Virus genome (UHGV): UHGV-0079174
Strand: one strand, 5' to 3'
From: a virus
Length of the DNA: 12,456 nt
Below, one piece after another: positions 1 through 12,456 of the stretch; the stretch's first letter is position 1, and each line of letters starts with the position of its first letter. A model generated the notes under the pieces. That model was not told the origin of the DNA and did not search any database. It worked only from the letters and a program-made list of their open reading frames with translations. The translations under genes and the position numbers were made by a program.

Positions 1-187
1 CATGTACCGGAACTTTAGGTTTTTTTCGTTGAGCGTCGCGAATAGCTTCACTGTGTGGACGTGCTGCATGAACCGGGCGGCTGTCTAAGATTAGCAAGGT
101 CTAAATACACCTCCAGTTTCAGATGGTTCCTAAAGGTGATGCTTGTGGTTATGATAGACAGAAAGATAAGACTTCCGAGGGTTAGCT

Positions 188-1021
188 ATGAGTGATGGGT
201 GGTTAGATTCTACTATGCAAGCAATAAACGATAGGATTAAAAGCCCATTATGGGGATATATCATTCTTGCATGGGTATGGTTCAACTGGCCTAACTTAGC
301 AATGCTCTTTATGAGTGATGCGCCTGTTAAGTTTCGAATAGATTATATACTATCTCAGGAATATTTTTACGCTCATTATCTGCTTGCTCCTGTCTTTTTT
401 GGAGGTGTGCTAGCTGTTATTACTCCTTATGCTCAATGGTTACTTTCTCTTGCTCAAAAATGGGCTACAGATAAACACAATGAAAATGTTTATCTTACAA
501 AGGAAAAAGAATACTTGGATTCAATCAGGTTAACGGGGTTAAAGGTTCGGGCTGCCAGAGAAGAAGAGAAAGAAAATGCTAAAATTGATGCTGATATTAA
601 AGCGGAAGTAGAGCGTGGTAAGCGTGAAGAGCTGGTCACAGAAGAGCTACAGACAGAGAAGAAACTGATTCAGAAAGAAATTAATAATTTAAAGCAGTTA
701 GTATCTAAAGAAAAACAAACCATTGAAAATATCGAGATAGAAAAAGAGAGACTACAGGATTTGATTGTTGCCTCACTTGAGGTAATGGATGATTTCTTTA
801 AAGTTGATAATAGCCATTCATTACAGCAATTGAAGAGTAGGGTAGAAGAACTTTTAACAGTTTCTGATATTGAAGCTTCTACCATACGTAACGCGCTACG
901 ACAAAAGAAAGAGCTAACTTCATCACAGACAATGAAAATGTTCGATATGGTAGAGGCTAAAATTAAAAAGGAAAAAGAAAAAGGTAATAATATAGAGTCG
1001 AATGAATTAATTAACCAATAA
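188..1021 (+). CDS. Hypothetical membrane protein: two N-terminal hydrophobic helices followed by a long charged coiled-coil-like C-terminal region
   Basis: 277-aa ORF from the track. ATG at 188 preceded by GAGGG (177-181). Hydrophobic segments WGYIILAWVWFNWPNLAMLF and HYLLAPVFFGGVLAVITPYAQWLLSLA, then an E/K-rich heptad-like sequence. No catalytic motif recognised. Confidence 0.6.
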   Translation: MSDGWLDSTMQAINDRIKSPLWGYIILAWVWFNWPNLAMLFMSDAPVKFRIDYILSQEYFYAHYLLAPVFFGGVLAVITPYAQWLLSLAQKWATDKHNENVYLTKEKEYLDSIRLTGLKVRAAREEEKENAKIDADIKAEVERGKREELVTEELQTEKKLIQKEINNLKQLVSKEKQTIENIEIEKERLQDLIVASLEVMDDFFKVDNSHSLQQLKSRVEELLTVSDIEASTIRNALRQKKELTSSQTMKMFDMVEAKIKKEKEKGNNIESNELINQ

Positions 1022-1061
1022 TGCTATGCCTGTAAATAACAGGACATAAACAGGTTAGTAC

Positions 1062-1309
1062 CTATGCAATTTAACGGTATTTTTCCAAGTATCTATGCAA
1101 TCCTACACAGATTCTATACAGTATCGACATAGCCCCTTTTTATCATAACTTATTGAAATATATAGAGAATCTGTAAATCCTCTTTTCAGGGTAAACTGTA
1201 TCGTGTTAGTCGTTCCTCTCTCGACACTACATACAGTGCTATATACAGGACTATATAACGGTGTCTATGCAGTTGGTCACTATCAATATTCCCTTAAAGT
1301 GACTATCAA
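1062..1309. repeat. Cluster of short direct repeats (iteron-like) in non-coding DNA
   Basis: CTATGCAAT at 1062-1070 and 1093-1101 (31 bp period); CTATGCAG at 1265-1272; GT(C/G)ACTATCAA at 1276-1286 and 1299-1309 (23 bp period). No ORF in the supplied track in this stretch. Confidence 0.4.
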
Positions 1310-1457
1310 GCTACTTAATAGTTTCCTATATGAAAGTTAGGAGGCGATAGTTATAGTTCCTTCGTAGTTCCCCTTAAAAAATCACTTAGAGACATCTTAA
1401 TCTATATGCAGATTTCACGTAGAACACGATTAGTGCGTAAAACAGCTATTATGTTAA

Positions 1458-1486
1458 AAACACACTGTGTTTATATCAGTACTGAT
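1458..1486. promoter_or_regulatory. Two adjacent palindromes, operator-like
   Basis: AAACACA-C-TGTGTTT (1458-1472, 7-bp arms) and a perfect 12-bp palindrome ATCAGTACTGAT (1475-1486), 2 bp apart. Confidence 0.3.
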
Positions 1487-1637
1487 TTATAAGGGTTTTG
1501 TGTATTGGCTGATAAGAGGCTATACAGCACCTTGAGAGCATGTCTTATAAGTCATTGACACATAAGGTCACAGAAGTTTGTAGCTGTTACAGAGAAAACT
1601 GGATAGGACTTCACAGAATTATAAAATGTTACAGCTA

Positions 1638-1665
1638 TTGATAGATGAAATCTTCTTGATAGATG
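1638..1665. repeat. Exact 10-bp direct repeat TTGATAGATG x2
   Basis: Copies at 1638-1647 and 1656-1665, 18 bp period, in non-coding DNA. Confidence 0.4.
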
Positions 1666-1916
1666 CTTTGAAGTGTGGTTAAGGTTTCTTGAGGTGGAGT
1701 TAACAGATGCCATGAAGAAAGTCAATAATTGGTTATAGATATTTTAACTGCTTTTGCAAAGGGGGGAGCTATATCGTGAATCTGGGGCACTTAACAGCCA
1801 TCAATTGAGTGTAGATATTTTTGAAGATTATCGGTGAAGGGGAATGTAGAGGGGTTACTACGATATTTATAAAAATTTTCAGACTCTGAAAAGTTACTGT
1901 ACAGATTTTATACAAA

Positions 1917-1940
1917 CTAAAAAGGACTCCCGAAAGAGTC
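1917..1940 (-). terminator. Candidate intrinsic terminator on the minus strand
   Basis: Stem GGACTC (1923-1928) / GAGTCC (1935-1940), 6-nt loop. On the minus strand the hairpin is followed by TTTTAGTTTGT. No T-tract follows it on the plus strand. Confidence 0.3.
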
Positions 1941-1975
1941 CCTATAAGTCGATTTTTAACGTGGCTACGACAATC

Positions 1976-2029
1976 CACCCATACCGCACCAAACCTTACC
2001 CCACCGAACCGCACCCTACACGACCTTAC
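1976..2029. repeat. C-rich (plus strand) / G-rich (minus strand) imperfect tandem repeat
   Basis: CCGCACC occurs twice and CCTTACC twice within about 55 bp (roughly CACC..ACCGCACC..CCTTACC repeated). Compositionally unlike the flanking AT-rich DNA. Confidence 0.3.
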
Positions 2030-2550
2030 CTCGCCGGACACTGCCATAGAGAGTGTGCTTGGTTGCTTTGGAAGTAAACCTAGTACAGTAAGCCATTATA
2101 CATATCGAGATAGTAACGTCAAGAAACTTTTAACAGGAGGGGTTCCTATGGTCACATATTCCCTCTCTTCCCACTAAGTAAGTCTTAGCAGCACCTAAGC
2201 AACAATTGACTAACAGGTTCGGTAGAGTCTATCTCATAGGTCAACTTCATAAACTCAGAGTTAAGTTACCTTGAAAGATTCTACCAAGAAACTACACAGG
2301 TGTTATTTAGTCTGACTGTGAAGGGATATTTAACGGGAGGAGAGATACGATATAACCCGAAGGGAGAGTATCATCTTAACAATTATCTTAAGAATAAAAC
2401 TGAAAAGTTCTTAACAGATGACTACCTAGAAAGAAGGGAACGATAAGACCAGAGGTAGTGACCTTGTTAAACAGGCTGTTTCAAAGCTCTTAAGAGTCTG
2501 TTAAGTAAGGGCTATGTGAACAATCTTACCATTTTGTCAATGCTTTTGTC

Positions 2551-2596
2551 TTTAGCAAAAAGTGCTAAACTTAACAAAAAGCACTAAATGCTAAAG
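2551..2596. promoter_or_regulatory. Repeat and inverted-repeat cluster just upstream of the methyltransferase gene
   Basis: TTTAGCA (2551-2557) / TGCTAAA (2563-2569) inverted repeat; 15-mers CAAAAAGTGCTAAAC (2556-2570) and CAAAAAGCACTAAAT (2575-2589); AAATGCTAAAG at 2586-2596 recurs at 3716-3726, and a related AAATGCTA lies in the promoter spacer at 4181-4188. Confidence 0.3.
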
Positions 2597-2634
2597 AGAC
2601 GATTAAGAAATATACTAAGAGGGGCGCTTCGCTT

Positions 2635-3303
2635 GTGTCACATCCAATAATCAATGTTGGTCGTTATCATGGTGGTTCTGATGACTGGCGTACACCGTAT
2701 CGTTTATTTCATAATCTGCATCGTGAGTTTAACTTCAGTCTAGATGGCGCTGCAACTGAGCATGACGCATTGTTGCCACGGTTCACCGATGATATTCACA
2801 ATCAATCATGGGTTGGTGAACGGGTCTTCGTTAACCCGCCGTTTAGCATGGCTGAAAAGTTCCTCTTAAAAGCCCCTGAAGCTGATGTGTGTGTATGTCT
2901 GGTTCCGCTCAGGTCAAAGACAACTTACTGGCTTCGGTGTGTATATACAAACCCCTTCCTGCATGAGATTCGAACGTTGCACCGAGCAGTCAAATACCTT
3001 CCACCAGCAGGAAAGAGAGGTGTTGTAGTGCGCTCACCGTTTCCAAGTTGCGTTTTGATATACAGGAACACACCCCGCAAACCGAAAGTTGAAGTTACCC
3101 AGACAATCTATTGTGGTGACACAATGCTTTTACTTGCCGTGGTTAACAGGGGTGGTTTACGTGGAAGACCTCATATGCACAATGCACAGACGCTTGACAG
3201 GTTGATTAAAATGTATGACCAAGGGCAACCCATCAAGAGCATCGCAGAATCGCTAAGAATGCCTCTAAGCACCACTTACAGGATTGTTCAAAGGTTGGGC
3301 TGA
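2635..3303 (+). CDS. Phage Dam-family DNA N6-adenine methyltransferase with C-terminal helix-turn-helix extension
   Basis: 222-aa ORF, GTG start 9 nt after AAGAGGGG. N-terminal DDWRTP, then VFVNPPFS (N/DPPY/F-type catalytic motif) and LVPLRSKTTYW...SPFPS, the pattern of phage Dam-type orphan methyltransferases. The last ~40 aa (GQPIKSIAESLRMPLSTTYRIVQRLG) read as a resolvase/Hin-type HTH. Family assignment is from motif memory, not a search. Confidence 0.7.
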   Translation: MSHPIINVGRYHGGSDDWRTPYRLFHNLHREFNFSLDGAATEHDALLPRFTDDIHNQSWVGERVFVNPPFSMAEKFLLKAPEADVCVCLVPLRSKTTYWLRCVYTNPFLHEIRTLHRAVKYLPPAGKRGVVVRSPFPSCVLIYRNTPRKPKVEVTQTIYCGDTMLLLAVVNRGGLRGRPHMHNAQTLDRLIKMYDQGQPIKSIAESLRMPLSTTYRIVQRLG

Positions 3304-3350
3304 AGTTCTCATATAGAGCACTGATTACGAGAATGTTAAAGATGCGATTT

Positions 3351-3541
3351 CCCCTTTCTGGGGTTATTCGCTTTTTACTGGAAGGGTTATTTTACAGAGG
3401 TTTTTCAAACCCCCTCAATAATAGAAACGAGCAACAAACGAAGAGCGAGAAATAAAAATATTGAGACTGGTGAACGGGGGTCTGTAAAGATTGTTTAAGA
3501 AGTCGGTTAAGAAGGTGGCTCTCCCTGTCTGGGGTTATCGC
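3351..3541. repeat. Direct repeat CCCT..TCTGGGGTTAT(T)CGC x2, about 171 bp apart
   Basis: CCCCTTTCTGGGGTTATTCGC (3351-3371) and CTCCCTGTCTGGGGTTATCGCC (3522-3541), in DNA with no ORF in the supplied track. Confidence 0.35.
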
Positions 3542-3768
3542 CTTGTGTCTTAGTGAGTCTTGAAAGTTCTCTGTGAAGAGTCTTGTCAGTCCTTTATATT
3601 GGCTAATTACAACTCATTGAAAAAATAAGCATTTTTAGAAATTACTGTCAGAGGGGTGAATACTTGATAGATACAGCTTTCCGGTTCTGTCAAGCTATTT
3701 ATTAATGGATAGCACAAAATGCTAAAGATACCCCTATACCATCACGTACAGGGGGTTTTGAAGGGAGT

Positions 3769-4026
3769 TTAACGGGGTTCTGTGTGGTCGTTATCCTTAA
3801 GGTCAAGCGTCCATGTACGACCGAACAGTTTAAAGACAACAAGCACTCTGACGAGGACGTAGCGAAGTAGCAGACCTGCAATCAGCCCAACACCTCCACC
3901 AGCCCATACATCAGGTGACCCCAGCTCAGGAGGGAGATTTACCATTAGTTTTCCTTGTAAGACGCTCTCAATCGCATTCTGACACAAAAAAGTACCTGAC
4001 CTTATATGTTGACCTGAAGAGGCCAT
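3769..4026 (-). CDS. Hypothetical small protein with one hydrophobic segment; coding status uncertain
   Basis: 85-aa minus-strand ORF with hydrophobic stretch GGGVGLIAGLLLRYVLVRVLVVF. A candidate minus-strand promoter lies upstream (4126-4155). Weak ribosome-binding site. Confidence 0.3.
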   Translation of the reverse strand: MASSGQHIRSGTFLCQNAIESVLQGKLMVNLPPELGSPDVWAGGGVGLIAGLLLRYVLVRVLVVFKLFGRTWTLDLKDNDHTEPR

Positions 4027-4125
4027 TTAACTCGTTACAGAGCGATTGAAGAGGTCTGTGTGCAATGCAATAACCATGCGGCCATTCTCATAGCCACGCC
4101 TCATATTTTACTCTCCCATAAACCC

Positions 4126-4155
4126 ATTATACCACAGATGTTAATAAAATGTTAA
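4126..4155 (-). promoter_or_regulatory. Candidate sigma70-type promoter on the minus strand, divergent from the plus-strand promoter
   Basis: On the minus strand: -35 TTAACA (plus 4150-4155), 18-bp spacer, -10 TATAAT (plus 4126-4131). Confidence 0.3.
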
Positions 4156-4161
4156 AAATGC

Positions 4162-4190
4162 TTGACATTAGTCTTTGAAAATGCTAGTAT
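4162..4190 (+). promoter_or_regulatory. Sigma70-type promoter (first of two matching promoters)
   Basis: -35 TTGACA (4162-4167), 17-bp spacer, -10 TAGTAT (4185-4190), followed by TGTATATATAGG (4191-4202), which is identical to the 12-mer after the second promoter. First gene starts 51 nt downstream. Confidence 0.55.
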
Positions 4191-4240
4191 TGTATATATA
4201 GGTTAACACAGAATTAACAATTATAAGGACTAGCTTATGA

Positions 4241-4795
4241 ATGAGAGACGCAGAATTTAGAGCGATGCTTCAGGCATCGAGACAACGTAACAGATACAAC
4301 TCCTACAGCTACACAGACACCCCCACCAGCTACGAATTACCCAAGCTCACCCAAAAAGAACGCAAAGGCATTGACGAAGTAATTCGGGCAATTACACCGA
4401 GGGAACGTTATATGCCAACCAGAAAGAGCACGAAGAACAGCATCAAAAATTATTTGAATAACTTCGACAGCTATGAGCAACTACCAAGTAAGCTTGATGA
4501 TATTTTCATTGGATTCTGTAGAAGTGAAGGCCACCCGAAATACAACAAAAAACTATTTTATCTTCTAAAGAATCTTGACGAAATTAACGCATCCAGCGTG
4601 ACAAATCGTCTTCAGCGTCAAGCAACCAGACTTAGCTACGAATTACCAACCGATGCCTATTGTGCATTGCTTGCTGTAATGTGTGCAAAGCTAATTGGTA
4701 TTGTTGAACATCATATTGCCGTTGGTAATATTGAGCCAATGGAAAACGAGCAACCAGACTTTGAGTTTGACCCGTATATTTTGGAGGAATTTTAA
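4241..4795 (+). CDS. Hypothetical protein with acidic C-terminal tail
   Basis: 184-aa ORF, ATG at 4241 preceded by TAAGGA. C-terminal EPMENEQPDFEFDPYILEEF. No recognisable domain. Confidence 0.55.
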   Translation: MRDAEFRAMLQASRQRNRYNSYSYTDTPTSYELPKLTQKERKGIDEVIRAITPRERYMPTRKSTKNSIKNYLNNFDSYEQLPSKLDDIFIGFCRSEGHPKYNKKLFYLLKNLDEINASSVTNRLQRQATRLSYELPTDAYCALLAVMCAKLIGIVEHHIAVGNIEPMENEQPDFEFDPYILEEF

Positions 4796-4796
4796 A

Positions 4797-5078
4797 ATGG
4801 GAAATAAACACACATTAACCAGAGTTACAAAGACAGCCTTTGAAGAGCTTAACCGAATCAAAAACATTACAGGTCTGCCACACTCAGCAGTGATGAAGCT
4901 TGCAATTAACCGTGATATTAACGAACAAGATTTGCTTAATAGTCGCTTAGAGGCAGCAAGACACCATATCAGGATTAAGCAAGATGACCTTGATAGTCTG
5001 AAATATTTAAATGCTTTTGGACTGGATTTAGCAAGGTTACTAAGCATCAAAATTCACAAATTAGCGATGGAGGTTTAA
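4797..5078 (+). CDS. Small protein, possibly a ribbon-helix-helix DNA-binding protein
   Basis: ATG at 4797 sits 9 nt after GGAGG (4783-4787) and 1 nt after the upstream stop; the track's 4695 start would overlap the upstream gene by 100 nt. N-terminus KHTLTRVTKTAFEELNRIKNITGLPHSAVMKLAI resembles a strand-helix-helix pattern. Fold call is tentative. Confidence 0.5.
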   Translation: MGNKHTLTRVTKTAFEELNRIKNITGLPHSAVMKLAINRDINEQDLLNSRLEAARHHIRIKQDDLDSLKYLNAFGLDLARLLSIKIHKLAMEV

Positions 5079-5464
5079 TGTATGACTTTTATAAACATCG
5101 TGACCATTTGGTAAGATTTGACGGTAAAGTCTGGAAAGACGTAACACAAACCAATAAACCCAAGTTTACCCACCAGCAATTAGCCTCAAGATTTGATATC
5201 TGGACTGAAGCACAAAAAGATAATGGTGATTTCGAGTTTATCAGAGGTTTTGATTATTCTTACGAAGACGACCTTAAAGACGCCATTAAATTAATTGAGA
5301 ACTTCAACTCTATTAAAAATGGTGACAAGCACAAAGCCAACGGTAACAGATACGATAAAGATTTAATCATTGATGCAATCACCAAAGGACAATCACAAAG
5401 TTATATTTCTGAGAAATACGGCTTATCACGTAGTCAATACTACAAGATTAAAGCGTCTGTGTAA
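5078..5464 (+). CDS. Hypothetical protein with C-terminal helix-turn-helix
   Basis: 128-aa ORF. Its ATG overlaps the upstream stop (TAATG at 5076-5080), indicating translational coupling. C-terminal DAITKGQSQSYISEKYGLSRSQYYKIK is the same resolvase-type HTH flavour as the methyltransferase C-terminus. Confidence 0.6.
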   Translation: MYDFYKHRDHLVRFDGKVWKDVTQTNKPKFTHQQLASRFDIWTEAQKDNGDFEFIRGFDYSYEDDLKDAIKLIENFNSIKNGDKHKANGNRYDKDLIIDAITKGQSQSYISEKYGLSRSQYYKIKASV

Positions 5465-5476
5465 GTCTGTGAGAAT

Positions 5477-5523
5477 GAGTGAGACTCAAAGATGAGCTAC
5501 CCTATTACTAAGGTGTCTCACTC
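5477..5523. promoter_or_regulatory. 9-bp perfect inverted repeat GAGTGAGAC / GTCTCACTC separated by 29 bp
   Basis: Arms at 5477-5485 and 5515-5523, between two genes. No T-tract follows, so it is more likely a binding site or RNA structure than a simple terminator. Confidence 0.3.
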
Positions 5524-5602
5524 CCTCTGTAACCCGCATGGTTACTGGCCTCAGGATGGCTATTTTGGCAGATTTAAGATGTGTTTTTAGAGGATTTTAA
5601 AA

Positions 5603-5926
5603 ATGAATAATTTCCCGCTACAGATTTTCGTTGATAGCGACACCGCTCTGATGATTCAGGCTTTCAGTGATTCCGGTGTATCAATTGACTTTGATAAATT
5701 ACTAAAGCTAATGGCTGATAACTCAGAAACAATTGAAGATTTTATTCAGGAAATTGAAACTGGTGACCCACGTTTTATGTTTCCCGTTACCGACTCAAAC
5801 ATGAAGCGCCTTATTATTGAGGAAACTAACCGATACAGCGTTAGCCCTGAAAAATATCTCAAGGCGGCTATAGTAATTTTGTACGCTGACAATGTTTTGG
5901 TTACGGATTCGAAGGTGGTGCATTAA
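5603..5926 (+). CDS. Hypothetical acidic protein
   Basis: 107-aa ORF, ATG at 5603 preceded by AGAGGA (5589-5594). Confidence 0.55.
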   Translation: MNNFPLQIFVDSDTALMIQAFSDSGVSIDFDKLLKLMADNSETIEDFIQEIETGDPRFMFPVTDSNMKRLIIEETNRYSVSPEKYLKAAIVILYADNVLVTDSKVVH

Positions 5927-5991
5927 TGGAATTGGTGATTATCTGTTTTGTATTGATTGGTATGATTGCAGGTGCATCTATTAAAGTATAA
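5926..5991 (+). CDS. Candidate 21-aa hydrophobic micro-protein MELVIICFVLIGMIAGASIKV
   Basis: ATG overlaps the upstream stop (TAATG at 5924-5928). Almost entirely hydrophobic, one predicted transmembrane helix. Below the ORF-track size threshold. Confidence 0.3.
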   Translation: MELVIICFVLIGMIAGASIKV

Positions 5992-6015
5992 ATGTTACCA
6001 ATCTGTTAAAAGCTG

Positions 6016-6044
6016 TTGACAAATAACCTTGAGCATGACATAAT
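6016..6044 (+). promoter_or_regulatory. Sigma70-type promoter (second of two matching promoters)
   Basis: -35 TTGACA (6016-6021), 17-bp spacer, -10 CATAAT (6039-6044), followed by TGTATATATAGG (6045-6056). Confidence 0.55.
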
Positions 6045-6146
6045 TGTATATATAGGGAGAGCAATTCTCCTTGAATTAAAATATTAATCATTCTACATCG
6101 ATGATAACTATATTCTGAGTTGGAAAGGTGCAATGCTTTTCGCTAC

Positions 6147-6175
6147 ATGACCTCTTATATAACTTGAGAGGTCAT
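6147..6175 (+). promoter_or_regulatory. Hairpin in the long leader (9-bp stem ATGACCTCT / AGAGGTCAT, 11-nt loop)
   Basis: Perfect 9-bp inverted repeat about 100 nt downstream of the predicted start site. No T-tract follows. Confidence 0.35.
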
Positions 6176-6234
6176 CTCGAAAAGTCTTTGTTCATTCATT
6201 GAATCCTTTAGATGTTCTTTAATTTCTTCACCTT

Positions 6235-6270
6235 AGCCCTTTATAGCGTTTTAGTTATCTAGGGCTTTTT
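6235..6270 (+). terminator. Terminator-like hairpin inside the leader (possible attenuator)
   Basis: Stem AGCCCT (6235-6240) / AGGGCT (6261-6266), 20-nt loop, then TTTT (6267-6270). Lies about 190-220 nt downstream of the promoter and about 110 nt before the first gene. The long loop weakens the call. Confidence 0.3.
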
Positions 6271-6378
6271 CAGCTTTTAAAAAGCATACATGGCAAACGC
6301 TTTTAAGTCTCTTCTAAGTTCGTAGGCTGTCAGGTGTGCTTTTTAAAAACTGAATATTACTTAGAAGAGGAAAATGAA

Positions 6379-7086
6379 ATGGAAAATCTATATATTAGCG
6401 GTAGAAAGGTTGATAGCTTCGGTGACTGGTCGCCACAGACTGAACATCCAGCTATCACTATTCAGCGTAAAGAACACGATGAAAGAATTAAGCTTGAGCA
6501 ATCGTTAAAGATGTCACCAAAGGTAATTTCCTTTGTGTCTCCTGAGCCTCAAGAAATGCCAGATATCTGCAAAAGTGAAGCACTATTTAATCTTGAGCGT
6601 GAATATTACCCACAGTTAAAAGCACAGCGTATTAAACTTGATGACGCTTACAGCAAAGTTACCCTGATGCAATCAGCTATTGAGCCGTCAGAATTTGAGA
6701 TTCAGGATGAATTGTCACAGAAACCATTTGTCTATTACAAATATGAAGACAATGATGGTTTTGGTACTTTTCCTGAGAATATCCCAGACGTGATTAATAA
6801 TCTTTCTGACGGATATCGAATTGTGAAGATGGTTAAGGCATCAAGAGGTGCTGGTCAGTTTATTTACATGACTAATAAGAGCGATGAAGAACTCGCTGAA
6901 CTTGCTAGACAGAACATCTTGGCATCACGTAACAAGCAGCTTGATAGTGCTAAGTTGTATCTCTCAAGAGAGCTTCAGGCTATGAAAGAGCTTGTTAGTG
7001 AATATGAGTCGCAGAAGAAGGTTGCTATGCAGGCTGATATTGAGCAGCTTACGAAGATTTCTAGCAAATATGCAAAAGCTATTTGA
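6379..7086 (+). CDS. Hypothetical protein with C-terminal coiled-coil-like region
   Basis: In-frame ATG at 6379 preceded by GAGGAAAA (6367-6374); the track's GTG at 6334 has no ribosome-binding site. 235 aa from 6379. No recognisable domain. Confidence 0.55.
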   Translation: MENLYISGRKVDSFGDWSPQTEHPAITIQRKEHDERIKLEQSLKMSPKVISFVSPEPQEMPDICKSEALFNLEREYYPQLKAQRIKLDDAYSKVTLMQSAIEPSEFEIQDELSQKPFVYYKYEDNDGFGTFPENIPDVINNLSDGYRIVKMVKASRGAGQFIYMTNKSDEELAELARQNILASRNKQLDSAKLYLSRELQAMKELVSEYESQKKVAMQADIEQLTKISSKYAKAI

Positions 7087-7094
7087 GGTGATTA

Positions 7095-7403
7095 ATGAGT
7101 GATTTAACAGAACGCGATAAAAGAATTAAAGGGGTGATGGAACCTTTTGAAGATAGGTTCAATGAAATTAAAACGACTCTTGGTGATATTCAGGAGGTCA
7201 CTGAATATCTTATTGGTCGTATGGACGAAAAGCCTCTTGCCGAACTAAAGTTTGAGGGTCGAGATGATTTAACCTTCCTTATTAGAGACCTCAAGCGAGA
7301 TGTAGGACGGCTTGAATCTATCTTTGATAAAGCTGGTCTCTCAATACGTTACGAAATTGTAAAGAATGAACGCGGTGTAAAGTGCATTCACTTCTTGGAG
7401 TGA
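7095..7403 (+). CDS. Hypothetical small acidic protein
   Basis: 102-aa ORF. Extended Shine-Dalgarno GAGGTGAT (7085-7092) before ATG 7095. N-terminus MSDLTER. Confidence 0.55.
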   Translation: MSDLTERDKRIKGVMEPFEDRFNEIKTTLGDIQEVTEYLIGRMDEKPLAELKFEGRDDLTFLIRDLKRDVGRLESIFDKAGLSIRYEIVKNERGVKCIHFLE

Positions 7404-7425
7404 AAATTGAATTATGAGGTGATGA

Positions 7426-7632
7426 ATGATTGATTTAACAGAACGCTATGAACTCATCAGGGCAATTAGCGAACGATTGAAAGAACAACCCAACAAACCA
7501 AAACGAATCAAATCATCCACCTCTAAGCAAAATAACAGAATCAGAAGAATCGCTAAATGGTGTCTTGATAAATTACCAAGTGATTGTCAGATTGTCGGTG
7601 AAGATGGCAATTATTATCTTGTCAGACATTAA
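7426..7632 (+). CDS. Hypothetical small basic protein
   Basis: 68-aa ORF. GAGGTGAT (7416-7423) before ATG 7426. N-terminus MIDLTER. Its first ~37 bp are near-identical to the start region of the gene at 7095. Confidence 0.5.
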   Translation: MIDLTERYELIRAISERLKEQPNKPKRIKSSTSKQNNRIRRIAKWCLDKLPSDCQIVGEDGNYYLVRH

Positions 7633-7658
7633 AAAGAATTGGTTGGGTAAAAATCAAC

Positions 7659-7699
7659 GGGAGAGATTATCGAGTGACATCGGTAGCTCTCCCTTTTTT
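7659..7699 (+). terminator. Candidate intrinsic terminator
   Basis: Stem GGGAGAG (7659-7665) / CTCTCCC (7687-7693) followed by TTTTTT (7694-7699). The 21-nt loop is long for a canonical terminator. Confidence 0.4.
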
Positions 7700-7814
7700 G
7701 TATATGTGCTACGTGATGATTCGGATAAGAATTATCCTCATGAAATCTGTAAAGCTAATACCCACACTGAAAAATAGAATTTACGTACAACACGCTTAAA
7801 GAGGTGAAACATGA

Positions 7815-9863
7815 ATGAGCAAATTCACAGTTGATAGTTTTATCGTTGAACTAGGCTTCAATGAGAACGTTATTAAAGGTCTGCAAAAAGTTGAAAAGGC
7901 AGCTTTGCAGTCAGCACAAAGAATTGAACGTAATTTGAATAGAGCGTTTAAGGTCGATACCAAGCAACTTGACAGTAATTTAACGGCTTCTTTAAAGTCA
8001 ATGGAAGGGAAGATTAATAAGACCTTTGACCGTCTGGAAGCTAGAGCAAAAAATACTAAAGCTTTCCGTTTCACAAGTCAGGTTAATGACGCTATTAATC
8101 CTCCAAAACAACCAAGACAGCCACGAATTAGCGGAAACAGAGCAATCACAGCAGCTTATTCAGCTAATATGAGCAAGCTGAAAGGTCTTAACCCAATTGT
8201 CGAGAAATACATTAAGAGTCAGTTTTACGCATTAAGTAGTAAAGCTGGTCAGATGGATAACACCAAGTTTAATGAAGCCCTCGCTAAACTAAATTCAAGT
8301 GTACGAGAAGCAATTGCTAAAGCCAGAGGTCATACATCCACCAGCATTAACGGTGACAGAGCAGCTAGCAGTCTTGATAGTCTGTCTTCAGCAGCAGTTA
8401 AAACAGCAGGTGCATTTATCAGCTTTCAGGCTGTACTATCCGCTTATCAGCGAGTAATGGAAGTTGGCCTTCAACGTGCATCATCGGAAAGAAGTATTGA
8501 TTTCGTATTCGGTGACCAAAGTACACAGGTTAAAAAGTTCATTCAAGATTTAACTCAAATTACTGGTATGGACACAACCGAAACACAAGCACAATTTGCT
8601 TCATTTGGTGCATCTGCAACGACTACGATGGGTCTTGAAGGGTCAGAAGAGTTATTTAAAAACCTTACAGGTTATGCTCGTTTAATGGGTCGTTCAGATG
8701 AGCAGATTCAAAGAGCATTAACCGCAGTGTCACAGATGGCCTCTAAGGGTCAGGTGATGGCTGAGGAGTTGAAGGGGCAATTATCTGAAGCTTTGCCGGG
8801 TGCTACTCAGGCATTTGCAAAGGCTTTAGGTCTGACTGAAAAACAACTTTTCGATAAGATGAAAAATGGTGATGTTAAAGCCTCTGATGCACTTCCTAAG
8901 TTTGCTAAAGAACTTGGTGCACAGATTAATTCAAGAGGTGGCTGGAAAGCTATTCAGGACTCTACGCAGACAATGTTAGGGAACTTAAAGAATACCTGGA
9001 ATAACTCACTAACGGATATTTTCAGAGGTTCTGAAAATGGTCTGCAAGATTTTACACGAAGCCTAACAACGCTTTTAAACAGTTTAGGTGGAAGTGGTAA
9101 AAGTCTTGGTGAATCTCTTGGTAGCTTGATGACTGATATGTCGCATGGTGTGGATAGCCTGACCGATATCAGTTACAGAGTGAGAGCTTTCTTTGATGAG
9201 GTGACATTGGCTTACCGTGGTTTAACCGATGAGCAAAAGAAAGTAGTTGATGCTTTAGGTTCTGGCTTGATTAATAGTTTAAAAGTCTTGGCTGGTGTTA
9301 TTGCTGTAAATAAAGTTGTTGGTGTAACCAGAAGTATTTACGGGCTTATGACTGCTATCACAAGATTAGGTCAGGTCGCTGATACAACAGCGGATAACGT
9401 GAATAGAAAGAACGGGAAACCATCAAGGTTTAATCTTGGGAATATGCTATTAGCTGGTAGTGCTATCTATGCAGGTTATGAGAGATTAGCTTCTACGCCT
9501 GAACGAATGGAAGCACAAGCTAAATTACCAGAGCTGGCTAAAGAGTCTGGACTTAAGCCAGTATTTACTATGGACGATGTGAAAGGTTGGTTTAATAGTG
9601 CTGCTATGAATCTTGCTAACTTCCAGCATCCAGAATTAATCACCATGAGACAAGATGCGGCATTAACGAATACGGATATCCAAAGCCTGAGAGATGAAAT
9701 TAGTGCTTTGAGCAAACGTATTCAGGAGCCTGTGAAAGTTTCACTTGGTGGTGAAGTTGCCATTAAACCAGATGAAACCAGCTTTATGACCTTTAGCAGT
9801 AATATCTACGACCAATACGCAGAAGCTACGCTATTAAGTTCATCATTCCCAGAAGATGATTGA
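7815..9863 (+). CDS. Tape-measure-like protein (phage tail length tape-measure domain)
   Basis: 682-aa ORF, AAGAGGTGA before ATG 7815. Central segment KGQVMAEELKGQLSEALPGATQAFAKALGLTEKQLFDKMKNGDVKASDALPKFAKELGAQ matches the conserved tape-measure domain pattern from memory. A/S/G/L-rich helical composition with internal hydrophobic segments. Confidence 0.6.
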   Translation: MSKFTVDSFIVELGFNENVIKGLQKVEKAALQSAQRIERNLNRAFKVDTKQLDSNLTASLKSMEGKINKTFDRLEARAKNTKAFRFTSQVNDAINPPKQPRQPRISGNRAITAAYSANMSKLKGLNPIVEKYIKSQFYALSSKAGQMDNTKFNEALAKLNSSVREAIAKARGHTSTSINGDRAASSLDSLSSAAVKTAGAFISFQAVLSAYQRVMEVGLQRASSERSIDFVFGDQSTQVKKFIQDLTQITGMDTTETQAQFASFGASATTTMGLEGSEELFKNLTGYARLMGRSDEQIQRALTAVSQMASKGQVMAEELKGQLSEALPGATQAFAKALGLTEKQLFDKMKNGDVKASDALPKFAKELGAQINSRGGWKAIQDSTQTMLGNLKNTWNNSLTDIFRGSENGLQDFTRSLTTLLNSLGGSGKSLGESLGSLMTDMSHGVDSLTDISYRVRAFFDEVTLAYRGLTDEQKKVVDALGSGLINSLKVLAGVIAVNKVVGVTRSIYGLMTAITRLGQVADTTADNVNRKNGKPSRFNLGNMLLAGSAIYAGYERLASTPERMEAQAKLPELAKESGLKPVFTMDDVKGWFNSAAMNLANFQHPELITMRQDAALTNTDIQSLRDEISALSKRIQEPVKVSLGGEVAIKPDETSFMTFSSNIYDQYAEATLLSSSFPEDD

Positions 9864-9875
9864 TAATAGTCGAAT

Positions 9876-9930
9876 GCTACGTGAAATCTCCTGAACAGAT
9901 ATACCCACCAAAAATTATTTTTCACGTAGC
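9876..9930. promoter_or_regulatory. 11-bp perfect inverted repeat GCTACGTGAAA / TTTCACGTAGC separated by 33 bp
   Basis: Arms at 9876-9886 and 9920-9930, between the tape-measure-like gene and the next gene. TTTCACGTAG also occurs at 1413-1422. Confidence 0.35.
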
Positions 9931-10020
9931 TCACGCTTAACAGATAAAACACTTAAATATCAAAGGCTTGGTTAAAAATGATTAAAATACACTAAGTCTT
10001 TGAAATCAAAGGAGAATATA

Positions 10021-10794
10021 ATGATTTACACTAATCAACTTCGTTACAGTGGCAAAGATGGTATCTATTTCCACTTAAGAGATAATGTAGATGCCTTCTT
10101 AACCTTATCAGCAACTGAAAACATGGAATTTGACAGCCCTATGCAGGTGACTACACAGAACATGCAATCAGGGCAAACCGTAACAGATAACGTGCAAAGA
10201 GCACCCAGAACAATCACTATTAGTGGTGTCGTTGTAGTTGGCTATGAAGGAAGCTTATTATTAACTCGTCAGGGTCAATTAGTAGAAAATTTCATCGACA
10301 CTCTTGAAAGCTGGCGTGACCAGAAGCAGATTATTTCTGTCATCTGTCGAGACGGTATCAAAATTGATGATTCCATTATTACGAGTTTTAAAGCCTCTAA
10401 AGATGTTGGAATTTCAAATGGTCTAAGAATCCAGCTAACTTTTCAGGAAATTAACTTCAAAGCCATTGTGGGTCAGACTGATATCTCTGCTGCAACTGGA
10501 AAGACCGCTACCACAAATGATGGTGGTGCTACTTCTAAGAAAAATACGGGTAACACTACGACAAGTCTAGGTAATGGTATGTTGATGTGTCAGGAGCTAT
10601 ATAATCGCTCTACGAGTGAACTCACTAATGAGCAACTTCAAGCCCGTATCAATTGTGGTAGAAGTGTCAAAGTTGAGAACGGAAAAAGCACCTTCTCAGA
10701 TGCCGCTAATGAGCAAGCTTCGAAAGTGCTTAGTAATGCTGGTACAGGTAGTACTTTGAAGAAATTTTCTGTAAATCCTAACAAGCGATACTGA
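10021..10794 (+). CDS. Hypothetical protein, possibly tail-associated by position
   Basis: ATG at 10021 sits 6 nt after AAGGAG (10009-10014); the track's TTG at 10000 is less likely. 257 aa from 10021. C-terminal third is T/G/N/S-rich low complexity. Function is inferred only from lying immediately after the tape-measure-like gene. Confidence 0.5.
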
Positions 10795-10808
10795 CGATAG
10801 AATCTCAA

Positions 10809-12332
10809 CTATATGATAACCTCATCAACATCTATTAAACCCCTCTCAGTGACTTCAGAAAGCGACTGTATAGCCTCTGTAACGTCCTCTGAGGGGTTTT
10901 CTGTTATTGATAGGTCAATTACCTTACCGTTGTGAAAACTTACTTTACAGCGACGTTTAGCAGTATTTAAAACGACCTCTTTAACAGCACTTTTGATTAT
11001 CAGTTGTGCTTCAATCCTTCCCGCCTTTGTAGTCAAGTCACAATCAGACAAACAACCAACATCAATAGATTTAAGGCGTTGTGTCTCCTTCTCGATATCC
11101 GCATCAACCTGTGATAGCTCACCTTTTAACTGCTTTAGTTTGATGGTAATAGCTGACAAATCTTCAATTTCAAGTGATAGCTGTACCAGCTTTTCAATAT
11201 TGCTTGAGATGTGTTCACGGTGTAGCTTCAGCGTATCTATGGTATTCGTCATATCGCTATCAAATCGGTCAAGACGAGATAGCAGGGTAAGTAATGTACC
11301 ATCAGTTTGCTTACGTGAAAGTCCTTTAGCACTACAACGGTTTTCATTACGAAGGGGACAACGATAAATCCCGCTTCTTGTATCGCTAAAGCCTGTGATA
11401 ATCAAAGCATGACCACATTCAGAACAACGGATAACACCTTTGAAAAGATTCACAGCCATTGGCTTATCTGAAGCAGGTTTTCTACCGTAACGAGAATATG
11501 ATAGTTGTTGAACTTTGTAGAATGTTGTTTCATCTATAATTGCAGGATAATAACCAGCTATCTCCTCACAGCCTTTAGGTGTGAAGTAACCAATTACAGA
11601 GCGATTTTTCAGAAGGTCTTGTACTGAGGTTTGACCAAATGAACCCGCTTTATATTGGTTAAGCGTCTGGTGACCTTCATCATTAAGAGTCCTGACAATC
11701 TCCCAGATAGACTTACCCTCTAACCGTAGCTGAAAGCACCTCTTCACAGTCTCCACTTTCTCAGGGATTACAGAGAAGCTTTTACGGTCATCATTAAGCT
11801 TAAGCCATGCAGGACAACGTTTAGAAATCTTGATACCTTCAGAGATGAGTTCTTTTTTACGGTTCCATGCAGCTTGTATACGCTCAGACTTCCTCAAACT
11901 CTCCTCATGCGACCGCTGCATTATCAGAATGCTTTTAATCAGAGCTAACGGGTCTTTAAGAGATTCTCGTGTGTAATGTTCACCATCGGACAAGGTGACC
12001 ACATCTACACCAGAGCGAAGAATGTTTCTGAGTAGCTCACTTGCTTGGTCTACATCTTGACGTGACAGACGGTCAAGAGATTCTATCAAGAGCGTATCAC
12101 CAGCTTTAACAAGCCCTTTCTCGATAGCGGTTAAAAAGTCACCTAAGCCACCTTTCAAGTGCTTACCAGTGAACCCACTCACCCCCAAATCACGGAAGGA
12201 TAAATCTTGGTCAAGGTAGTACTCAGGATGAGCCTTAAGCCAGTCATTAACCATCTTAGACTGTCTGCGTAGTGAGTCGCCTTTGGCTTGTCGCTCAGAA
12301 CTGAATCTGATGTAGCTGATTACACGTTTCAT
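10809..12332 (-). CDS. Large serine recombinase (probable integrase of the element)
   Basis: 507-aa ORF. N-terminal resolvase-type catalytic domain with YIRFSSERQ (nucleophile-serine motif, compare YIRVSTEEQ), a Cys-rich zinc-ribbon-like segment CSECGH...YRCPLRNENRC, and a C-terminal coiled-coil region. This is the domain order of phage-type large serine integrases. Confidence 0.85.
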   Translation of the reverse strand: MKRVISYIRFSSERQAKGDSLRRQSKMVNDWLKAHPEYYLDQDLSFRDLGVSGFTGKHLKGGLGDFLTAIEKGLVKAGDTLLIESLDRLSRQDVDQASELLRNILRSGVDVVTLSDGEHYTRESLKDPLALIKSILIMQRSHEESLRKSERIQAAWNRKKELISEGIKISKRCPAWLKLNDDRKSFSVIPEKVETVKRCFQLRLEGKSIWEIVRTLNDEGHQTLNQYKAGSFGQTSVQDLLKNRSVIGYFTPKGCEEIAGYYPAIIDETTFYKVQQLSYSRYGRKPASDKPMAVNLFKGVIRCSECGHALIITGFSDTRSGIYRCPLRNENRCSAKGLSRKQTDGTLLTLLSRLDRFDSDMTNTIDTLKLHREHISSNIEKLVQLSLEIEDLSAITIKLKQLKGELSQVDADIEKETQRLKSIDVGCLSDCDLTTKAGRIEAQLIIKSAVKEVVLNTAKRRCKVSFHNGKVIDLSITENPSEDVTEAIQSLSEVTERGLIDVDEVII

Positions 12333-12361
12333 TCTTTACCACCATAAAAACTAATAGCGCG

Positions 12362-12390
12362 ATTGTATCGCTTTAGGTGGTGTATTTAAA
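12362..12390 (-). promoter_or_regulatory. Candidate promoter for the recombinase gene
   Basis: On the minus strand: -35 TTTAAA (plus 12385-12390), 17-bp spacer, -10 TACAAT (plus 12362-12367). The -10 overlaps the palindrome GCGAT-TGT-ATCGC (12359-12371). Confidence 0.25.
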
Positions 12391-12456
12391 CGTGTCTGAT
12401 GAAAATCACCCGATTAACGCCGCGCTGATGTAAACCGCGATTAAGCGTTTGTTCCT

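Follow-up and report, generated by a model that had tools for sequence, protein, structure and literature searches.

Does the short stretch upstream of a serine recombinase gene, at the right-hand end of this sequence, hold the attachment site of the element that encodes the enzyme, an operator of the recombinase gene, or only repeats of the kind that arise by chance? The whole stretch of DNA analysed here (hereafter the window) is 12,456 nucleotides long, and the question concerns its last 124 bp (positions 12333-12456), which a first-pass annotation had tentatively put forward as an attachment site or operator on account of a palindrome, direct repeats and a raised GC content. We aligned the window with the empty chromosomal sites of Escherichia coli K-12 DH10B and AR436, a comparison that this annotation had itself proposed, and thereby located an island/host junction at 12402-12403, within the interval in question, so that an attachment site of the serine recombinase does lie just upstream of its gene.

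The window contains an entire island of 12,313 bp that splits E. coli yecE at codon 160, both junctions included (Table 1). Its first 88-91 bases are yecE by comparison with E. coli genomes, the minus-strand translation of positions 1-88 (LDSRPVHAARPHSEAIRDAQRKKPKVPVH) matching YecE, and positions 12402-12456 belong to the same gene, which encodes a DUF72 protein. In a megablast search with positions 11900-12456, this yecE flank was present in 5416 of the 5426 complete E. coli genomes, thousands of which carry it with 100% identity, while the full query was found in only 276; recombinase-proximal DNA occurred in 276-293 genomes (293 for the P arm) and an uninterrupted attB in 5139 of the 5426. 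The flank also matches the yecE flank of Stx-prophage records. In RefSeq the yecE remnant appears as a DUF72 pseudogene with its C-terminus missing, and the gene order in strain SCU-387 is recombinase, yecE pseudogene ('missing C-terminus') and the tyrosine integrase of a second prophage. The island is 100% identical in E. coli MS20645.

The empty site, attB, reads CTGTCT-AA-AATCACC (longer form GGCTGTCT-AA-AATCACCC), the left junction CTGTCT-AA-GATTAGC (GGCTGTCT-AA-GATTAGC, host sequence through base 88) and the right junction CTGATG-AA-AATCACC (GTCTGATG-AA-AATCACCC, host sequence from base 12402). In this allele the dinucleotide AA alone is common to both junctions and the empty site; the 2-bp limit of the core is set by the window allele only, since attP and attB of the sister alleles share AAAATCA and are uninformative in this respect. 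The crossover corresponds to yecE nucleotides 478-479, in codon 160 of 272, and the truncated frame reads YecE(1-159)-FIRHV up to a stop codon at 12386-12388. The gene lies on the minus strand, co-directional with the recombinase gene, and the attB predicted to be restored is GGCTGTCTAAAATCACCC. The outer limits of the B and B' half-sites were taken from the usual attB size of the family (~20 bp per half-site). Positions 12376-12423 are thus very probably a hybrid attachment site (P, AA and B'; 'attR' in the orientation of the window) that was left when the large serine recombinase of the island integrated into codon 160 of yecE.

Table 1. Features of the two island junctions, the recombinase gene and its upstream region (positions in the window; invariance refers to nine alleles).
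Feature	Position	Strand	Remarks
Host yecE, distal part (codon 160 onward)	1-88	-	window begins inside the gene; identical to K-12 DH10B yecE to base 88
B half-site of attB, left junction	67-86	.	host DNA next to the core; outer limit approximate
Crossover AA, left copy	87-88	.	final host-identical bases; base 89 is G, A in the host
P' half-site of attP, left terminal inverted repeat	89-114	.	reverse complement GGAGGTGTATTTAGACCTTGCTAATC pairs with 12376-12401
Integrated island	89-12401	.	12,313 bp, set by the two junctions
Large serine recombinase (integrase), 507 aa	10809-12332	-	Pfam, PHROG, catalytic motif
Leader	12330-12360		12/31 invariant, with indels
Shine-Dalgarno-like GGTGG	12339-12343	-	6 nt upstream of recombinase ATG; variable leader, weak support
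Palindrome GCGAT-TGT-ATCGC	12359-12371	.	allele-specific; loop and inner stem hold the -10 hexamer
Block upstream of leader	12361-12375		14/15 invariant
Candidate -10, TACAAT	12362-12367	-	consensus scan; invariant in 9/9 alleles
P half-site of attP, right terminal inverted repeat, GGTGGTGTATTTAAACGTGTCTGATG	12376-12401	.	predicted integrase-binding half of the hybrid site; 22/26 invariant
Candidate -35, TTTAAA	12385-12390	-	within P half-site; contains stop codon of truncated yecE (12386-12388)
Direct-repeat unit CTGATGAAAA	12396-12405		straddles island/host junction
Crossover AA, right copy	12402-12403	.	first host-identical bases; base 12401 is G, T in the host
Host yecE, proximal part (to codon 160)	12402-12456	-	runs past window end; holds 3/4 repeat units
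B' half-site of attB, right junction	12404-12423	.	yecE sequence next to the core; outer limit approximate
Direct repeat CGATTAA, two copies	12411-12417, 12438-12444		host yecE coding sequence
Direct-repeat unit CTGATGTAAA	12425-12434		host yecE coding sequence

The evidence originally offered for an attachment site was nevertheless the wrong evidence, the determinants being the P half-site and its inverted partner at the opposite end of the island, 12.3 kb away. This partner is absent from the first-pass annotation, and no reading confined to the 124-bp interval could have paired it. Placed end to end, the two termini of the island yield a candidate attP, ...GGTGGTGTATTTAAACGTGTCTGATG-AA-GATTAGCAAGGTCTAAATACACCTCC..., of ~54 bp in all, with GTGTCTGATGAAGATTAGCAAGG as the predicted junction of the window allele. 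The rebuilt site displays a dyad in which 19 of 30 positions match, including an exact run of 10 bases (P = 2.5e-5; 7.8 +/- 2.4 matches in random arm pairs drawn from the window). The dyad exists only with AA as its axis, shifts of +/-1 to 6 giving 3-13 matches, and the symmetry of attB is slight (10/30). A repeat finder independently reported the arms as inverted repeat I3 (90-114 and 12376-12400), and the counterpart of arm 89-114 is contiguous with the P arm in a metagenome contig described below. As predicted from its two ends, the rebuilt attP is of the form usual for large serine integrases, while the right junction itself is the hybrid P-AA-B' and not attP. Exact and degenerate searches of IMG/VR, blastn against INPHARED and a metagenome scan did not find an intact attP of the window allele (GATG-AA-GATTAG), and the attP of this allele is a reconstruction.

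A comparison set of eight diverged alleles was available, from seven E. coli genomes (76-92% DNA identity) and one metagenome contig. The junction with yecE falls at one and the same base in each of the seven integrated alleles. The integrases of strain TK3887, of O157:H7 Vac_07.1 and of the contig are 92-94% identical to that of the window; the islands of the two strains measure 11,533 bp and 13,379 bp, respectively, and their left junctions both read CTGTCT-AA-AATCATCAAGGTCTAAAT. The contig (ERZ1090866 NODE_760, 11,473 bp; L017) was the single metagenome sequence retrieved with a degenerate attP pattern. Its recombinase end runs into the left-end genes via GTGTCT-AATA-AA-AATCAT-CAAGGTCT and it contains no yecE sequence anywhere, representing a sister island in a permuted, host-free attP form, whose junction equals the attP predicted from the TK3887 junctions through both arms. 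With K-12 attB, TK3887 attL and attR and L017 attP, the lengths between fixed anchors balance, attB(4) + attP(12) equalling attL(8) + attR(8) nt; the exchange is therefore conservative and a 2-bp target duplication is excluded for this sister allele, whose recombinase is 94% identical to that of the window. L017 is a single contig of 6x coverage, and inspection for circularity revealed no terminal overlap between its ends, one of which is a Nextera adapter (TCGTCGGCAGCGTCAGATGTGTATAAGAGACAG). At the other end GTGACAAAATGTCA occurs twice, the two units resembling iterons.

Two further comparisons were set aside. Covariation of the outer ends of the attP arms across alleles was suggestive between the window and TK3887 and failed for O157. 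Recombinase relatives in GTDB genomes (Shigella flexneri and Escherichia sp.) have a different upstream sequence, pointing to another target, and were uninformative.

The recombinase encoded next to the site is intact. It matches the Pfam models Resolvase (PF00239), Recombinase (PF07508) and Zn_ribbon_recom (PF13408), all above cut-off, and PHROG 95 (integrase; E = 9.5e-78), and YIRFSSERQ at residues 7-15, read from the translation, corresponds to the catalytic-serine motif YxRxSxxxQ. The closest solved structure, and the sole solved relative detected, is the A118 integrase (E = 2e-5 over about 80 residues). The A118 or LI integrase (attB in comK; 4KIS, 5UDO, 6DNW) is likewise a three-domain large serine recombinase that uses an attP of ~50 bp, in which imperfect inverted half-sites flank a 2-bp core, and splits a protein-coding target gene, which excision would restore; the sequence relationship is remote, however, and target gene, core (AA) and half-sites all differ, the present enzyme being known from its sequence. 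The closest phage-encoded relatives in INPHARED are of the YbcK type (lambdoid coliphages, DLP12), which align over 97% of their length but are only 36% identical and reside in lambdoid genomes of ~45-50 kb; blastn of INPHARED did not find an att sequence common to these phages and the island.

Bxb1, phiC31 and SPbeta SprA carry out conservative attP x attB recombination at a non-palindromic dinucleotide that sets orientation, and leave attL and attR inert unless a directionality factor is present (PMC3783163, PMC5499854). As at the present site, their integrase gene lies next to attP, but these are complete temperate phages with known factors (gp47, gp3 and SprB), whereas here we are dealing with a 12-kb island. 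By analogy with the mechanism established for the family (PMC3783163), integrase dimers would bind the ~54-bp attP (12376-12403 joined to 89-114) and the ~40-bp attB in yecE and then synapse. Staggered double-strand cuts of 2 bp at AA, with phosphoseryl links, would be followed by a 180-degree rotation of the subunits and religation of the strands, the non-palindromic AA setting the orientation. The resulting attL and attR would be inert to the integrase alone, and precise excision, restoring yecE exactly, would need a directionality factor.

A junction made in this way could also be a fossil, the island now being a fixed remnant that no longer excises and the site having no present function. 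The attP of the window allele was missing from IMG/VR, INPHARED and the metagenome scan, every sampled context of the exact recombinase protein is integrated beside yecE, and in many relatives the recombinase is truncated or an IS has inserted; in addition, we recognised no candidate directionality factor in the island with Pfam, PHROG or NCBIfam. Recombination directionality factors are too diverse for homology detection. Against such a loss of function, the recombinase frame has kept all three domains and the catalytic motif, the two half-sites are likewise intact as well as conserved, and the sister allele in L017, which shares the half-site core and whose enzyme is 94% identical, is found in unintegrated attP form. 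The mosaic make-up of the island family and its patchy distribution, the yecE site being occupied in ~5% of genomes, also suggest ongoing movement, and we consider a fossil junction unlikely.

In 170 of the 499 index blocks that contain the exact recombinase the longest contig measures 10-20 kb, markedly more than in the neighbouring size classes. This excess could stem from assembly breaks at the adjacent prophage or from island-sized (excised) contigs.

The motifs that had first drawn attention to the interval do all occur in 12333-12456, at the positions listed in Table 1, but as a noteworthy structure they do not hold up, since none exceeds chance in 2000 dinucleotide-preserving shuffles of the interval. 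Palindromes whose arms measure 5 nt or more and whose loops do not exceed 8 nt numbered 1.3 per shuffle (P = 0.65). The direct repeats stand at ~0.14 each, with P = 0.145 for exact 7-mer pairs and P = 0.135 for 10-mer pairs with no more than one mismatch, and both kinds jointly at P = 0.064. The two copies of CGATTAA and CTGATGTAAA are seen in the empty site and hence are yecE and not island DNA, CGATTAA encoding the Asn-Arg pair of LNRG and VNRV in YecE. CTGATGAAAA is composed of CTGATG from the island, the AA of the crossover core and a final AA from the host. With three of the four units lying in a gene that continues past the window, a circumstance that the first-pass annotation had itself named as refuting its call, the direct repeats drop out as an attachment signal; the match between island DNA and yecE coding sequence is coincidental. 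In the related alleles the CTGATG of this island is CTAATA in seven of eight, and the left arm of the palindrome, GCGAT, is TAGAT in all eight, which leaves a 3-bp stem. The 5-bp palindrome is peculiar to the window allele, and, given these replacements, the features singled out earlier are allele-specific accidents. At 31-44 bp from the crossover, the palindrome falls outside the symmetric attP.

The higher GC content that had been taken as a possible mark of the element boundary was borne out in part: the interval (0.419) does exceed the window (0.394), but the recombinase gene has the same value (0.419), and the claim is weak. Split at the junction, the interval has a GC content of 0.377 in its island part and 0.473 in its host part, and 13% of 55-nt windows within the island are as GC-rich as the host part.

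It is very improbable that the palindrome and the direct repeats form an operator that controls recombinase expression independently of any attachment function. The palindrome does overlap the candidate -10, a usual position for an operator, and its right arm and loop belong to the invariant block, but it occurs at chance level, its left arm differs in all eight relatives and no conserved dyad is present; the repeats that would accompany it are coding sequence in island-free genomes, apart from the fourth unit, which spans the junction and is not constant among alleles. Transposition with a 2-bp target-site duplication can be dismissed as improbable in the extreme, for while a transposase might have made the AA found at both junctions, one island ORF is labelled 'transposase' in RefSeq and the ~25-bp terminal inverted repeats superficially resemble transposon ends, the anchor bookkeeping shows no bases gained, all alleles occupy one base of one gene in ~290 genomes, which is not transposon-like, the ORF so labelled matches no Pfam or NCBIfam transposase model, and the inverted repeats are symmetric about the core as in the attP of a large serine recombinase, the gene for which adjoins the site. 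An attachment site of the tyrosine-integrase (lambda) type was also rejected, the core being only 2 bp long and the adjacent enzyme a serine recombinase.

Overlapping the hybrid attachment site, the conserved bases upstream of the recombinase gene include a sigma-70-like match, TTTAAA and TACAAT with a 17-nt spacer, agreeing with the consensus at 9 of 12 positions. With 0.6 such matches expected by chance in the scanned region, the agreement with the consensus is weak when taken alone; both hexamers and their spacing are invariant in nine of nine alleles, compared with only 12 of 31 positions, with indels, in the leader. The -10 hexamer is situated in the loop of the palindrome discussed above. 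We would give roughly even chances to the reading that the invariant block 12361-12390 is the recombinase's own candidate sigma-70 promoter, in which case bound integrase would repress its own gene because the -35 lies inside the P half-site. Conservation of 12361-12375 could reflect another bound factor, and host yecD-yecE transcription, being co-directional, could read into the recombinase gene when the island is integrated. In two alleles (L007 and L012) the leader contains, in the segment from the ATG to the -10 block, a 21-nt insertion, GCAGTTGGGCTTGTACCAAC, with a hairpin GTTGG-GCTTGTA-CCAAC, which could be a regulatory or mobile mini-element.

What lies between the two junctions is an island that encodes an orphan Dam-type methylase-HTH fusion, small ORFs, a tape-measure protein, a Dit-like protein and the recombinase. 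The Dit-like gene (10000-10794) specifies a protein 79% identical to gp112 of Felixounavirus, and positions 10045-10593 are 92% identical to Felixounavirus at the DNA level over 549 bp. The tape-measure protein (7815-9863) aligns over its full length with its Felixounavirus counterpart at about 28% identity, and the order of the two genes is the same in the island and in Felixounavirus, where the gp112 gene directly follows the tape-measure gene. Felixounavirus phages are strictly virulent. At ~1948-2049 there is a non-coding element, GATTTTTAACGTGGCTAC...ATCCACCCATACC followed by an ACC-rich tract that repeats about every 7 nt. Counterparts of 75-95% identity are present in 102 Felixounavirus-type genomes, in intergenic DNA that carries no annotation, with two copies between gp091 and gp090 in VpaE1; the sequence is absent from the island variants of TK3887, O157 and L017 and is possibly a packaging, replication or promoter signal. 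Searches with Pfam, PHROG and NCBIfam recognised no capsid, portal or terminase genes in the island, and PADLOC reported only the orphan methyltransferase, so that the island does not count as a recognised defence system.

Parts of the island were detected in 548 of the 5426 complete E. coli genomes (comparison of window positions 941-10466), and its core is common to elements that have other recombinases and occupy other loci (e.g. CAVP888, L013, next to lpxL). Related islands carry insertions of IS2, IS21, IS3 and IS1203 and, optionally, an HNH endonuclease, an AP2/ERF-type regulator and a small serine recombinase, and together they appear to form an undescribed mosaic family of 10-15-kb islands. 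The Felixounavirus homologues suggest, at the level of sequence, a satellite or interference relationship with FelixO1-like phages. The PLE of Vibrio cholerae encodes a large serine recombinase as its integrase, the directionality factor for which, PexA, is encoded by phage ICP1. The likeness to PLE is one of organisation, a small chromosomal island with a large serine recombinase and a link to a strictly virulent myophage (here through Felixounavirus homologues); sequence homology to PLE is not implied, the island being known here from its sequence. A bolder and rather doubtful proposal would see in the att site a switch for the mobility of 11-13-kb E. coli islands that form an undescribed family and parasitise or interfere with virulent FelixO1-like myophages, excision at AA being brought about by a phage-supplied directionality factor as in PLE/ICP1. 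Parts of islands of this family occur in ~10% of complete genomes, with interchangeable serine recombinases and phage-like tape-measure and tail-tip (Dit-like) genes of their own, and the only hint of excision is the one attP-form metagenome contig.

Two candidate counterparts of the island were rejected. As a possible O157 equivalent we looked at SpLE2 of strain Sakai (13,459 bp), but this CP4-44-like island adjoins yeeX and its genes are unrelated. GenBank MT836130 (a 12.7-kb 'Bacteriophage sp.' with a terminal large serine recombinase), considered as a free form, matches in its recombinase alone, at 30% identity.

The gene yecE also harbours the tyrosine-integrase att site of Stx phages (EH297-type), which has a ~21-bp identical core at both junctions (AJ431361; PMC8112680; PMC5592225). 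The present site shares the host gene with it but belongs to another enzyme class, lies ~430 bp away and has a 2-bp core, so that yecE holds two independent integration sites used by two enzyme classes. Both types of element can occupy the gene together, as in SCU-387, and yecE is often doubly occupied (L001, which is SCU-387, locus 3505-5228; L020, L021 and L023-L026), the island and a lambdoid prophage then lying ~430 bp apart and leaving a 429-bp middle fragment of yecE. The published work on yecE that we found concerns the 21-bp Stx-phage site and not this serine-integrase site, and no description turned up when the literature was searched for yecE together with serine recombinase or integrase, or for Felixounavirus together with satellite. 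Neither this attB nor the recombinase accessions occur in the portion of the supplement to the large serine recombinase catalogue of Durrant et al. (2022) that we could consult, a portion that does not prove their absence from the whole. The site is an undescribed but typical attachment site of a large serine recombinase.

As such it is a routine site, which adds a precisely mapped attP/attB pair (AA core, yecE codon 160) to the large-serine-integrase repertoire. A practical consequence is that Stx-phage typing by PCR of yecE occupancy could be confounded, a non-Stx island of 12 kb causing the locus to score as occupied in ~5% of complete genomes. The Felixounavirus-like cargo is a more interesting lead than the att site, and the junctions offer a handle for telling whether the island is an active satellite or an interference element.

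Several other observations on the island were made. The ORF at 2635-3303 is an unusual fusion of an N-terminal Dam-type N6-adenine methyltransferase with a C-terminal resolvase-type HTH_7 domain. No RNA family in Rfam matched the window, and two regions, 1022-2634 (1.6 kb) and 3304-4240 (0.9 kb), have neither a convincing ORF nor an Rfam match and may contain an origin, regulatory RNAs or decayed genes. The motif TTTCACGTAG(N)CACG occurs in direct and inverted orientation at 1410-1444, 9867-9889 and 9920-9951, that is, in the left region, where ORFs are scarce, and in the interval separating the tape-measure and Dit-like genes, and is possibly a binding site for one of the HTH proteins of the island. 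Finally, a 38-nt direct repeat, 89% identical between its copies (7084-7121 and 7415-7452), extends over the ribosome-binding site and initial codons of each of two neighbouring small ORFs (7095-7403, beginning MSDLTERDK, and 7426-7632, beginning MIDLTERYE), which are probably paralogues.
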